A DNA stretch of 64,000 bases, from the NCBI RefSeq assembly GCF_003334335.1, contig NZ_QOWQ01000003.1; one strand, given 5' to 3'. Of this stretch, positions 8,997 to 13,158 are shown in pieces; the stretch's first letter is position 1; every line of letters begins with the position of its first letter. A program made the translations under genes and the position numbers. The DNA is from Escherichia coli (GTDB taxonomy: Bacteria; Pseudomonadota; Gammaproteobacteria; Enterobacterales; Enterobacteriaceae). The notes below the pieces were generated by a model, which saw only the letters and a program-made list of their open reading frames with translations, was not told the origin of the DNA and made no database searches.

Positions 8997-9216
8997 GTAC
9001 CCCTCCGCATTTTTTTTCGTTAGAAATAAGCGTTCTTCTTTCCTGTTCATCGATCAGGAATACGCAGACCTCACCGCTAAGGCGTTTAAGTAAGCCGATG
9101 ATTGCCCCTGATTCGCTGTCGGTCATCATGCCTGGGTAATCCTCTGCCAGTGCGCAAATAACTTCGATTTGGTGGGCGCGTTCTGCTGCCTGTTGTAGTG
9201 TGATTTCCTGGCTCAT
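8986..9216 (-). CDS. Hypothetical protein, 76 aa
   Basis: ATG at 9216 overlapping stop of upstream ORF (ATGA). Confidence 0.5.
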   Translation of the reverse strand: MSQEITLQQAAERAHQIEVICALAEDYPGMMTDSESGAIIGLLKRLSGEVCVFLIDEQERRTLISNEKKCGGVHVQ

Positions 9217-9413
9217 AAGCCTACCCCCTGACGAATACGGGCAGCGAATACCATCACGCAGCCAGCCGGGGATTGCAGGCGTGCTTCCTGTTCGCTGGTG
9301 GCCTCAATGGTAATCACGCGCGGTTGTGCAGTGCTCAGGGCGATAAAACGCCAAATGTATTTATTCAGGTTGTGCGAGTCCCGCCCTTGCGGGTGTGTGG
9401 TATGATTTCTCAT
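9213..9413 (-). CDS. Hypothetical protein, 66 aa, first gene of leftward operon
   Basis: ATG at 9413 with GAGGTAG RBS; this is the only plausible part of the spurious 340-aa ORF 9213..10235. Confidence 0.45.
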   Translation of the reverse strand: MRNHTTHPQGRDSHNLNKYIWRFIALSTAQPRVITIEATSEQEARLQSPAGCVMVFAARIRQGVGL

Positions 9414-9508
9414 AGCTACCTCGATACTCTCGTTATCGTTGGTGGTTAGAAGCCCGGTTAGTGTTAGCGCACTGCCGGGTTTCGTCGTTTCTGCACCTTG
9501 CGCCAACA

Positions 9509-9566
9509 AGGTGTTGAACACCAATTTAAACCCAGGTGTTAAACACGTCAAGTGTTGAACACTTAT
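9509..9566. promoter_or_regulatory. Three palindromic operators in divergent promoter region
   Basis: GGTGTTGAACACC, GGTGTTAAACAC and AGTGTTGAACACT; last one contains TTGAAC -35 candidate with CATACT -10 about 17 bp downstream for the RHH gene. Confidence 0.5.
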
Positions 9567-9612
9567 TTTTTTTCCTGCATACTGCATTTGTTTTTTATGA
9601 GGGGTACACCAC

Positions 9613-9792
9613 ATGGCGACAAAAGCAGTAAACGCAAAATCACAAACCGTTGCGGCAAGGGTTCCGCATGAAGTTATGAACAATGTTGAGGCGGTAAAAA
9701 TGCCTGGCGAAAGTACGGGGCAATTTGTTACTGCAGCATTAAAACGAGAAGTTGAATATCGCCAGCGGCGCAAGGCCAAAGAACCAGAGTAA
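9613..9792 (+). CDS. Ribbon-helix-helix DNA-binding protein, 59 aa, candidate satellite repressor
   Basis: Not in ORF track (below 60 aa); ATG with GAGGGG RBS; AARVPHEV beta-strand then helices, typical Arc/CopG-like pattern. Confidence 0.55.
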   Translation: MATKAVNAKSQTVAARVPHEVMNNVEAVKMPGESTGQFVTAALKREVEYRQRRKAKEPE

Positions 9793-9834
9793 TCACCATC
9801 AGCGCCGTGGTGTAAGGTATTACGGCGCATTGCT

Positions 9835-10023
9835 ATGCAGGACAACACAATGACCGATAAAGAATTGACCAAAACATTATCACCGGCACGGAAAAGACGG
9901 CGCAGAAAGATAGAGCATGAATCAGAAAGATTCGCGCCATGTGCTTTTGCCCTTGAGCAATTCCTTAAAGAGTACAGGGAAAAGCGCTCATTGCAGGTAT
10001 GGCAACGAACTGAACCAGACTGA
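9835..10023 (+). CDS. Hypothetical small basic protein, 62 aa
   Basis: Lies between the RHH gene and a plus-strand terminator in the same transcription unit; weak RBS. Confidence 0.35.
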   Translation: MQDNTMTDKELTKTLSPARKRRRRKIEHESERFAPCAFALEQFLKEYREKRSLQVWQRTEPD

Positions 10024-10116
10024 TAGCATTGCCCACCAGCCTGATAGCGACTATCATTGCCGTTCTTATGTTTGGGATCACACACACAAACGGCGCAGCG
10101 GGTTATCTGTTCAGAA

Positions 10117-10148
10117 AGGCGGCTCCATTTCGGGGCCGCTTTTTTTAT
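10117..10148 (+). terminator. Rho-independent terminator of the RHH operon
   Basis: GCGGC...GCCGC hairpin followed by TTTTTTTT. Confidence 0.65.
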
Positions 10149-10292
10149 ACCTGAAAAACCCCAATTTTGTTGTTTTTCAGTTTCACCAGGGCGAACGAAT
10201 CCCCGCCCACGTTCTGGCGTATATTCAATCTTCATGGTTATAGCTCTGTGTTCAGATGATTGATGTGTGGCGGCTGCGTGCCGCCAGCGTGA

Positions 10293-10481
10293 TTAATGAA
10301 CTGCCTTGCAGCTATCCTTCCAGGCCAGAACCTCGGATAAAGACCAGCCAACGGAACGACCGCCAAGTTTACGACGTGATGGGAATTGTCCGGCCTTTTC
10401 CAGGCGGTAGCGACACGTACGGCTAAGGCCGGTTAGTTTTTCGCATTCTTTTTCACGTATAAACCGATCAGTGCTTAACAC
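10293..10481 (-). CDS. alpA: AlpA-family transcriptional regulator/excisionase
   Basis: GTG start at 10481 with strong RBS (AAGGGGGG); ORF track extends to a TTG at 10562; EKLTGLSRTCRYRLEKAGQFP HTH typical of AlpA. Confidence 0.75.
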   Translation of the reverse strand: MLSTDRFIREKECEKLTGLSRTCRYRLEKAGQFPSRRKLGGRSVGWSLSEVLAWKDSCKAVH

Positions 10482-12252: not shown

Positions 12253-13158
12253 GCTGTTATTCTTAACCCGCTGGTGCAACACATGGTCCGCTGGCGTGTG
12301 CCGCGTGTACTGGCGGTGTCGATTTTGATGACCATCATCGTGATGGCGATGGTGTTGCTATTAGCTTATCTGGGTTCCGCGCTCAACGAGTTGACGCGGA
12401 CGTTACCGCAATATCGCAACTCTATTATGACGCCGCTGCAAGCGCTTGAAGCGTTGTTGCAACGCGTAGGGATTGACGTCTCAGTTGACCAGCTGGCGCA
12501 TTATATTGATCCGAACGCGGCGATGACGTTGCTCACCAACTTATTGACGCAGTTATCTAATGCCATGTCATCAATATTTTTATTGCTGCTGACGGTGCTG
12601 TTTATGCTGCTCGAAGTGCCACAATTGCCCGGAAAATTTCAGCAAATGATGGCGCGTCCGGTTGAAGGGATGGCGGCGATTCAACGTGCGATTGACAGTG
12701 TTTCTCATTATCTGGTGCTGAAAACAGCCATCAGCATCATCACCGGCCTGGTCGCCTGGGCGATGCTCGCCGCACTCGATGTTCGCTTCGCTTTTGTCTG
12801 GGGATTGCTGGCCTTTGCGCTTAATTACATCCCGAATATTGGTTCAGTCCTCGCGGCAATCCCCCCTATCGCTCAGGTACTGGTGTTTAATGGCTTCTAC
12901 GAAGCGTTGCTGGTGCTGGCGGGATATCTGCTGATTAATCTGGTCTTCGGCAATATTCTGGAGCCGCGTATCATGGGGCGTGGGCTGGGGCTTTCCACAT
13001 TGGTGGTATTTTTGTCGTTGATTTTTTGGGGATGGTTGTTAGGACCGGTGGGTATGCTGCTTTCCGTGCCGTTGACAATTATTGTCAAAATTGCGCTTGA
13101 ACAAACAGCGGGAGGTCAAAGCATCGCCGTTCTGTTAAGCGATCTCAATAAAGAGTGA
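12253..13158 (+). pseudogene. tqsA: tqsA (AI-2 exporter) 3' fragment, 5' end displaced by the satellite
   Basis: Protein matches TqsA from about residue 50 onward; in-frame TAA immediately upstream at the junction; only GTG/ATG internal starts remain. Confidence 0.8.

Follow-up and report, generated by a model that had tools for sequence, protein, structure and literature searches.

A predicted ribbon-helix-helix protein and its putative operators as a candidate for the missing repressor of Gram-negative phage-inducible chromosomal islands

Which factor, if any, keeps the phage-inducible chromosomal islands (PICIs) of Gram-negative bacteria under negative control? The founding paper on these elements described their global repressor as "unclear" and the difference from the islands of Gram-positive bacteria as "a mystery" (PMC6092414), and later work has treated AlpA as the sole master regulator. 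The question is raised again by a control region found in a 64,000-nucleotide stretch of the Escherichia coli chromosome (contig NZ_QOWQ01000003.1 of assembly GCF_003334335.1; hereafter, the window), in which an island is inserted in tqsA, beside pntAB. Between alpA and the first gene of the island's leftward operon, which encodes an Icd-like protein, lie the gene for a 59-amino-acid protein of the YlcI/YnfO family and three palindromic sites (O1–O3). We regard this protein and its three sites as a strong candidate for the "missing" repressor of the island family. The region as a whole is probably the on/off control module of the island, in which a ribbon-helix-helix (RHH) repressor acting at O1–O3 would be combined with a cis-antisense RNA and with AlpA-driven read-through. 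Our computations covered the sites, the predicted protein fold, the covariation of protein and operators, the promoter geometry, the structure of the RNA of the antisense strand and an open reading frame (ORF) that crosses the region.

The argument starts from the following features (strand in parentheses; PL and PR are the predicted leftward and rightward promoters).

9510–9522 (no strand): putative operator O1, GGTGTTGAACACC, directly downstream of the PL −10 and around the predicted PL start; an equivalent exists in every type-1 allele.
9535–9547 (no strand): putative operator O2, GGTGTTAAACACG, inside the PL −35/−10 spacer; this 13-mer tracks the beta-strand of the RHH allele.
9551–9563 (no strand): putative operator O3, AGTGTTGAACACT, overlapping the PR −35 and one base (9551) of the PL −35.
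9523–9551 (−): PL, with −35 TTGACG (9551–9546), a 17-bp spacer and −10 TAAATT (9528–9523), from a promoter scan.
9555–9583 (+): PR, with −35 TTGAAC (9555–9560), a 17-bp spacer and −10 CATACT (9578–9583), read by eye.
9613–9792 (+): gene of the 59-amino-acid YlcI/YnfO-family RHH protein, a predicted operator-binding repressor, with the Shine-Dalgarno sequence GAGGGG at 9599–9604.
9213–9413 (−): Icd-like gene, 66 amino acids, first gene of the leftward operon (NCBIfam NF033153, 69 bits; phrog_6196; annotated as such by the Prokaryotic Genome Annotation Pipeline, PGAP, in loci L001, L002 and L084).

The initial annotation of this DNA had placed three inverted repeats between a leftward multi-gene operon and a rightward two-gene unit, the third repeat overlapping a candidate −35 element, and in all of this it proved accurate. 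The core GTGTTNAACAC has three exact matches (at 9511, 9536 and 9552), all within 52 bp, and none elsewhere in the 64-kb window, and a repeat search returned a three-copy family with spacings of 25 and 16 bp. When one mismatch was allowed, seven matches were found in the window, against 2.45 expected. The minus-strand genes that begin with the Icd-like gene continue to the left edge of the window, an operon of more than 9 kb.

The promoter on which two of the sites lie is conserved. An equivalent of PL (TTGAC(G/A) or TTGAAG, with a spacer of 17–18) is the best sigma-70 match, scoring at least 9/12, and stands at the same position in 26 of the 38 unique type-1 intergenic variants; a phylogenetic footprint shows its element TCAAG kept across genera. 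On the rightward side, a −10 of the TATACT/CATACT type precedes the RHH ATG by about 29–36 nt in many alleles. Only in the window allele does O3 sit 16 bp from O2, over the PR −35; every other type-1 allele has its third site 45 bp away from O2, where it directly follows the PR −10 TATACT, and at the corresponding position (9580–9592) the window allele has lost the site.

The RHH gene is divergent from the replication and packaging operon, with operators overlapping the predicted PL. Operators that overlap both divergent promoters are most naturally read, from their layout, as those of a repressor that would close the divergent promoter and limit its own synthesis. Because the sites lie over PL and over the RHH gene's own promoter, and because they vary with the protein as described below, the autoregulated repressor proposed in the initial annotation is well supported. 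The title of "master" repressor that went with it is presumptive, AlpA being the published activator.

Some smaller elements of the same intergenic region may be recorded here. Just left of O1, and overlapping its GGTG, is an inverted repeat, CACCTTG/CAAGGTG (9494–9500/9507–9513), which other alleles keep with a different sequence (e.g., TTGAGT..ACTCAA); it may form a hairpin at the 5' end of the PL transcript or serve as a further binding site. Two 12-nt segments (9580–9591/9619–9630), 92% complementary, would place the Shine-Dalgarno sequence and ATG of the RHH gene in a 27-nt loop and may act in translational control. Between the promoters, a T-run (9566–9573) varies from T7 to T9 in near-identical loci (L006 vs L008), shifting the long minus-strand frame discussed below, a variation that could come from sequencing error or slippage. 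A one-mismatch copy of the core on the alpA GTG start (10471–10481, GTGCTTAACAC) was rejected as an operator: it also occurs in the O157:H7 locus L002, whose operators differ, and is judged coincidental.

Against NCBIfam NF041551 (YlcI_YnfO_N), whose curated cut-off is 30 bits, the 59-amino-acid protein scores 59.7 bits (E = 2.1e-16, residues 9–50), and PGAP gives its orthologues the YlcI/YnfO name. A family of Arc-like alleles that occupies the same slot ("PPYQMRLPEDFRAQLEEAAKADGDTSLATWIKRVLRKEL") matches P22 Arc over its full length (E = 0.0023), as well as AmrZ and an "Arc family" protein; a profile-profile comparison (hhalign) of the window family with these Arc-like alleles gave 93.6% probability and E = 2e-7 over 45 columns, which comprise the strand and both helices. 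The AlphaFold2 (AF2) monomer has an extended N-terminus and two helices (pLDDT 79). In a linker-joined AF2 dimer each half shows a strand (10–18), a helix (19–28) and a second helix (35–56), with a core pLDDT of 88–92, so that the predicted protein has the beta-alpha-alpha order of RHH proteins and N-terminal strands forming an antiparallel dimer ribbon. Among the best structural matches of the predicted fold is TraY, a relaxosome accessory protein. We accept the protein, as a prediction, as an Arc-like RHH protein, in agreement with the initial annotation.

In the 59-amino-acid alleles helix 2 is followed by a short basic tail, without a toxin-binding extension. The RHH alleles of L004, L005, L036, L071 and others are longer (99–106 amino acids): a conserved segment of about 42 amino acids (…AEGSGENPLVSSLDALAQVEKLGIKAAEEIGQLV…) is inserted ahead of the common basic tail and may be an extra oligomerisation or sensing domain. 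For the YlcI/YnfO (DUF3950) family no published function was found in the literature searched.

Are the three palindromes the sites read by this protein? To compare alleles, loci were anchored on the conserved Icd-like protein (80 IMG/VR loci plus annotated E. coli loci, most of them E. coli and of common ancestry). In these related loci, which span six genera and include 82 of E. coli, the slot holds at least 15 small-protein alleles. The RHH scaffold is kept (N-x-K-S ... R-V/I/F-P-H-E/D-V ... G-E-S ... Q-F-I ... G-E-I-K-R-R-Q-R-R-K), and the residues just N-terminal to the invariant Arg, which by alignment to Arc are the DNA-reading face of the strand, are hypervariable. Two or three repeats, of the general form GGTG-N5-CAC(C), are found at fixed positions with every allele and are peculiar to it. 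The core is TTGAA for the window allele and TCAGC, TGGCC, AATCG or AAATA for others, and whole sites include CTGGATTCCAG and TGTGCGCACA. The operators of the Arc-like alleles are GGTAATTACC, GGTGTACACC or GGTACGTACC; types that are non-cognate to the window allele include GTGTCAGCCAC and GGTAATTACC.

The N5 core co-varies with beta-strand residues 11–15 across alleles and genera. A strand of the type SQMTT(V/I)RIP goes with GTGTAT(T/G)TCAC in E. coli, Enterobacter and Dryocola, and SQQLNARFP goes with GTGAATCGCAC in E. coli and Citrobacter, with more such pairs in E. soli and Cedecea. Beta-strands that are identical or nearly so keep the same operator across genera, while the DNA that separates the sites has diverged. 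For 23 unique pairs, the distance between beta-strands correlates with that between operators at a Mantel r of 0.48, a value reached in none of 5000 permutations.

None of the neighbouring proteins follows the operators in this way. An identical AlpA (WP_000953272.1) flanks GTGTTGAACAC in L001 and GGTAATTACC in L002, all operator types occur beside Icd-like proteins of at least 92% identity, and one and the same second protein follows unrelated RHH alleles; since none of the three co-varies with the operators, AlpA, the Icd-like protein and the second protein can be excluded as the specificity partner. The comparison thus supports the palindromes as predicted cognate operators of the 59-amino-acid protein, and protein and operators would together make up a specificity cassette that is exchangeable in the manner of the immunity region of a phage. 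A profile search of the genome contigs with the RHH alignment found only 8 loci, a search of a phage collection gave one match only, and K-12 ylcI has no comparable repeats upstream.

An RHH protein that binds such repeats need not be a repressor. RHH proteins also serve as centromere and relaxosome factors, and the best structural matches here include TraY and an RHH ParB, so that the protein might be an architectural or accessory factor, or an activator, working at the repeats in replication, excision or packaging (cf. TraY, ParG). We consider this unlikely: the sites fall exactly on the −35/−10 spacer and start of a promoter that is conserved, and on the promoter of the RHH gene itself, the island has no ParA or relaxase gene, and each operator core is confined to the control region of its own locus, with no copies near int, alpA or the replication genes. 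The repressor reading is the one that we carry forward.

If PL is the target of a repressor, the Icd-like leader that it would serve seems to be controlled a second time, by an RNA.

9414–9491 (+): predicted cis-antisense RNA of about 78 nt, with two hairpins and a U-rich tail, complementary to the Icd-like Shine-Dalgarno sequence (GAGG, 9419–9422) and leader, up to the start codon.
9398–9406 (+): predicted extended −10 of this RNA, TGgTATGAT, 7 nt upstream of the RNA and inside Icd-like codons 2–6; read from sequence.

In 19 diverse sequences, the 24 predicted pairs are 96% paired and nine of them show compensatory changes; none of 500 shuffles reached the observed covariation, which collapsed in slid controls. 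The same pairs, read on the plus strand, contain 55 G-U cells and 18 mismatches, and on the minus strand 2 G-U cells and 71 mismatches. This strand asymmetry of the structure implies that the RNA is antisense to the Icd-like leader. In the −10 hexamer T1, A2 and T6 are kept in all 53 unique variants, with TATAAT, TATTAT and TATAGT as alternatives. No Rfam family reached its gathering threshold anywhere in the island, and the RNA matches neither C4 nor isrK. We thus predict a cis-antisense RNA on the strength of covariation and strand asymmetry.

The rightward unit is itself antisense to something, namely, to a minus-strand frame without stops.

9414–10235 (−): stop-free frame in phase with the Icd-like ATG, part of a 340-amino-acid ORF (9213–10235), running antisense to operators, RHH gene, second gene and terminator alike.
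10293–10481 (−): alpA, 62 amino acids, GTG start; orthologue of the characterised EcCICFT073 activator, convergent with the RHH unit.

Of the 340 codons of the ORF, 274 lie upstream of the Icd-like start, and alpA of the window shares their frame. In 57 unique versions of the region, non-homologous alleles among them, the frame stays open for a median of 264 codons before the Icd-like start, and for 150 codons or more in 49 of the 57; shuffles have a median of 30 (maximum, 135) and the plus strand a median of 38. Stops in the Icd-like frame average 3.4 per 880 nt, vs 17.6 and 16.3 in the other minus frames. Within 32 distinct RHH alleles we counted one antisense stop, where synonymous reshuffling predicts 31.6. 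The phase of the RHH ATG relative to the Icd-like ATG is constant in all intact alleles, and where the frame is broken, either a different frame stays open nearly as far as the Icd-like start (L045, L078) or a change in T-run length explains the break. In many loci the stop of alpA itself is the only one in this frame between the region upstream of alpA and the Icd-like gene. In EcCICFT073 the frame is a 428-amino-acid ORF directly after alpA, probably the "ORF3" whose reporter fusion was AlpA-dependent.

The peptide that this frame would encode is not conserved and matches no family in NCBIfam or PHROG. Its conserved N-terminus has 48 synonymous to 63 non-synonymous changes, a ratio that is weakly suggestive, and the "Icd-like pseudogene" placed by PGAP at 9788–10235 was discarded, as it matches no Icd model and is accounted for by the long open frame. 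It is openness, in other words translation, that selection appears to maintain, and not the encoded product. Since the rightward unit lies antisense within a stop-free minus frame that runs from just past alpA into the Icd-like gene, the leftward operon may have a second, upstream entry. Just downstream of the alpA stop (10268–10286, minus strand) there is a GC hairpin, GGCGGC-5 nt-GCCGCC, that has no U tract and is kept in CFT073-type loci; its interest comes from the fact that AlpA of Pseudomonas is an antiterminator (PMC9371919).

Could the long minus-strand ORF ("ORF3") be the real gene, the 59-amino-acid ORF a shadow that is not expressed, and the palindromes sites for AlpA, a helper-phage factor or a host factor? 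Its frame is open far beyond chance, it is recorded as a gene in CFT073-type records and in LR881103, and PGAP left an Arc-like allele of O157 unannotated. In that O157:H7 locus (L002, NZ_CP032795) the gene for a 57-amino-acid Arc-like RHH protein, with GGTAATTACC operators, lies at 2825–2998, and PGAP instead puts a minus-strand "Icd-like pseudogene" over part of the control region. Locus L095 (LR881103, the "phage" vB_KppS-Ant, 16.5 kb, from induced particles) shares the control module; its operators are GTGCACCCCCAC, GTGGGGGTACAC and GTGTACCCTCAC, and its RHH gene is unannotated and overlapped by an annotated 324-amino-acid minus-strand ORF that ends in the Icd-like domain. All the same, we find this explanation very improbable: the plus-strand ORFs fall into families that are curated or recognised by homology (NF041551 and Arc, as above) and have Shine-Dalgarno sequences, the RHH scaffold persists across alleles of otherwise unrelated DNA, the long-ORF peptide lacks both conservation and family, and AlpA is identical at loci with different operators. 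Both strands may be translated, and the two readings are not mutually exclusive. In what follows the RHH gene is taken as real and the open frame as something that surrounds it.

The rightward unit has two further parts.

9850–10023 (+): second gene, 57 amino acids (62 from ATG 9835), with a basic N-terminus and a conserved (R/K)FAL(E/D)xF(L/V) motif.
10115–10146 (+): intrinsic terminator of the rightward unit (A-tract, GC hairpin and U-run; 12-bp hairpin at 10115–10143), identical in L002.

The two-gene unit of the initial annotation stands with one amendment. The first ORF is as described; the second, read as 62 amino acids, more likely starts at ATG 9850 (57 amino acids), because the Shine-Dalgarno sequence AGGA (9839–9842) is 7 nt upstream of it and the PHROG alignment begins at that Met. 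The protein matches phrog_21027 (function unknown, E = 1.6e-15, aligned from the second Met), and its homologues, all hypothetical and from E. coli and Shigella, have no Pfam domain. Divergent variants share only the short motif listed above. At 9850–10023 the codon positions split 14/9/19, with third positions that coincide on the two strands, so that the count is uninformative as to the coding strand. The clean terminator that had been noted is borne out by fold and sequence (12-bp stem followed by a U-run; z = −3.15 for the 141-nt stretch), a simple terminator scan having listed none on the plus strand; its shape suggests that it could be bidirectional.

Some repeats surround the second gene. 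A 7-bp GC-rich hairpin (GCGCCGT/ACGGCGC, 9802–9808/9822–9828) stands between the RHH stop and the second gene, at the recombination junction of variable and conserved DNA. The gap between the second gene and the terminator contains direct repeats of CTGATAGC (10020–10027, 10041–10048) and ATTGCC (10028–10033, 10056–10061) and an inverted repeat GATAG/CTATC (10043–10055). All of these are kept in the O157 locus L002.

A type II toxin–antitoxin pair, the alternative raised in the initial annotation, with the RHH protein as autoregulating antitoxin and the 57/62-amino-acid basic protein as toxin, would suit the order of a small RHH gene and a small gene behind palindromic operators and before a terminator, and RHH antitoxins are common, but we hold it to be scarcely credible: no recognisable toxin is adjacent and no conserved pair exists, the second protein matching no toxin or defence family in NCBIfam, the PHROG function classes or PADLOC (as the initial annotation had sensed in finding it unlike known toxins), while the second protein can be the same behind RHH alleles that are not homologous, in some loci its place is taken by another gene or is empty, the RHH gene of the Klebsiella-type vB_KppS-Ant is monocistronic with a terminator of its own, two of the three operators cover the divergent PL and not the RHH promoter, and the 59-amino-acid alleles have no extension by which to bind a toxin.

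The element that the repressor module would control can be named from its gene content. On the minus strand the island encodes an integrase, AlpA, a RepA-like helicase-primase, SSB, a PerC-like protein, a major capsid protein, a protease, a portal protein, head closure and adaptor proteins, and HNH; PHROG matches in the window were obtained for HNH, adaptor, head closure, portal, protease, major head, SSB, helicase-primase and integrase. The window edge cuts the island, with the terminase genes beyond it, and a near-identical island annotated in CP042903 has TerS and TerL there. The set (int, alpA, a primase/replicase, and its own capsid, protease, portal, connector and HNH/terminase genes, with no tail genes, the last point judged solely from CP042903) is that of a capsid-forming PICI (cf-PICI), a type of phage-parasitic satellite described in bioRxiv 10.1101/2022.09.08.507074. 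By its genes, then, the island is a cf-PICI, and calling it a satellite, as the initial annotation did, was right. Its insertion has cost tqsA (12274–13158) the 5' end, and PGAP lists that gene as a partial pseudogene in the matching genome.

The module is not peculiar to this island. The prototype PICI EcCICFT073 (NC_004431) has alpA, the 57/62-amino-acid gene and a YlcI/YnfO gene, then the divergent Icd-like gene, and the module also occurs in the O157:H7 island beside roxA, of the EcCIEDL933 type. Among 5426 complete E. coli genomes, 1704 match part of the control region, and the window's own allele is found at a coverage of at least 80% in 215. A related PICI (L026, 2931–3135) has, just downstream of the Icd-like gene, an Rfam C4 antisense RNA (72.7 bits), a1/b1 targets and an isrK-like match; in that island both protein and P1/P4-type RNA immunity are present.

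How might such a module work? Binding, repression, expression of the antisense RNA and the mechanism of read-through are what we infer for the following model. The RHH dimer would read the 13-bp GGTG-N5-CAC(C) sites through its N-terminal beta-ribbon. In the resting island, O1–O3 would be occupied by RHH dimers, so that PL is blocked and PR limited; the block of PL would keep the operon of Icd-like, replication, capsid and packaging genes off, and O3, over the RHH gene's own promoter, would provide negative autoregulation. The antisense RNA would pair with the Icd-like ribosome-binding site and stop translation of leaky leader transcripts, and might cause polarity in the operon, by analogy with icd/ant of P1.

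Induction must take AlpA into account. In EcCICFT073, AlpA is an activator, required and sufficient for induction, that activates its own promoter (PalpA) and is turned on by helper phages (PMC6092414; PMC11773190), and on these data the RHH protein cannot be the sole switch. In the model, a helper phage would turn on PalpA, and AlpA would amplify itself. More speculatively, strong leftward transcription from PalpA would then cross the stop-free and presumably translated frame, with the following ribosomes suppressing Rho and the shared hairpin terminator; being antisense to the convergent repressor unit, this transcription would interfere with it and would enter the operon regardless of PL, and as the repressor decayed PL would add to expression. 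The read-through step is what reconciles a repressor cassette with the published AlpA data.

Several observations weigh against this reading. A Pfam scan of the 59-amino-acid protein found nothing significant, a profile search of the PDB that used only the window family brought up no RHH protein, and Foldseek with the monomer model gave only a weak match, an RHH ParB at E = 9.9; the fold call for the window allele rests on the profile-profile comparison and the predicted structure. The PR −35 is poor in most alleles. Covariation of adjacent DNA is partly explained by linkage, which is insufficient on its own because three separate sites change in concert. The stop-free frame is absent in some relatives of other genera, such as the Citrobacter locus L088. 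The antisense RNA resembles SymR (Rfam RF01809) below threshold (33 bits, E = 7.4e-4 in a 2.1-kb search; gathering threshold, 61 bits), and the match did not recur at E ≤ 0.1 in ten related loci, so that we rejected membership of the SymR family and keep the likeness as an analogy only. Finally, over-expression of AlpA alone induces EcCICFT073, and alpA is essential (PMC6092414); the RHH protein may be a fine-tuning or anti-leak device.

A wider proposal can be put forward, tentatively and with the odds against it. The YlcI/YnfO RHH protein would be the global repressor of Gram-negative PICIs and cf-PICIs, and induction a convergent-transcription switch, in which AlpA-driven transcripts, translated along the stop-free frame and shielded from Rho and the shared terminator, silence the repressor unit and carry ribosomes in phase across the Icd-like start that the antisense RNA blocks. 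If this were true, co-resident satellites would fall into immunity groups according to their many operator and beta-strand specificities.

The closest known arrangement is immI of phage P22, where the RHH repressors Arc and Mnt act on the divergent Pant and Pmnt, from operators inside and between back-to-back promoters, with negative autoregulation and with sar, an antisense RNA over a ribosome-binding site. Our locus has in common with it small RHH repressors (one allele family matching Arc itself), operators at divergent promoters, an autoregulated repressor and a cis-antisense RNA on a ribosome-binding site, all of them predicted here. It differs in having a single RHH gene, on the repressor side only; in controlling a satellite replication and capsid operon headed by the Icd-like gene, where P22 has an antirepressor gene; in its at least 15 interchangeable specificities; and in a repressor unit that lies antisense within a stop-free frame. 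Binding, in our case, is a prediction.

The Icd-like first gene, with a translation start that is the target of a small RNA, recalls immI of P1 and P7 (c4 RNA–icd–ant) and the CI RNA of P4. In P1, translation of icd is needed against premature termination upstream of ant. Unlike the RNAs of those phages, the one predicted here is cis-antisense and not processed from the same transcript, and there is a protein repressor in addition. SymR offers a further parallel, as a cis-antisense RNA of about 77 nt with two hairpins, a promoter within the first codons of its target and cover of both Shine-Dalgarno sequence and start; its target SymE, however, is unrelated to the Icd-like protein. The YlcI/YnfO (DUF3950) genes of DLP12 and Qin, two cryptic lambdoid prophages, belong to the same NCBIfam family, and K-12 YlcI resembles the "KKNIRFP...NFSAWV" alleles, but in DLP12 the gene adjoins cos and nohD and has no GGTG-N5-CAC repeats upstream.

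Among satellites, the counterpart is Stl (Rpr) of Staphylococcus aureus pathogenicity islands (SaPIs) and Gram-positive PICIs, with which the RHH gene shares its position divergent from the replication and packaging operon, its predicted role in quiescence and its high allelic diversity (PMC6092414). Stl, by contrast, is a helix-turn-helix protein, co-oriented with int and inactivated by a helper-phage protein, whereas the protein described here is a predicted RHH protein, encoded convergently with alpA and int. The published trigger of the Gram-negative islands is the helper-dependent activation of alpA (PMC6092414; PMC11773190), and no anti-repressor is known here.

The module is built from familiar parts: an Arc-like repressor, operators within divergent promoters and a cis-antisense RNA. 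New are its position, where the main operon of Gram-negative PICIs and cf-PICIs begins, the many-allele specificity cassette and its embedding in a protected antisense frame. In the literature searched, which was that available without subscription, no paper links YlcI/YnfO, DUF3950 or an RHH protein to these islands, and for the combination of Icd-like gene and antisense RNA nothing relevant was found.

Gram-negative PICIs and cf-PICIs are widespread and mobilise virulence and defence genes. The cassette described here is a concrete candidate for their missing negative control, present in both laboratory prototypes, where it is partly unannotated. It would give the YlcI/YnfO (DUF3950) family a first function, would supply a natural set of orthogonal small repressors with a readable code from beta-strand to operator, and would flag an unusual selection for an open antisense frame across a regulatory cassette.

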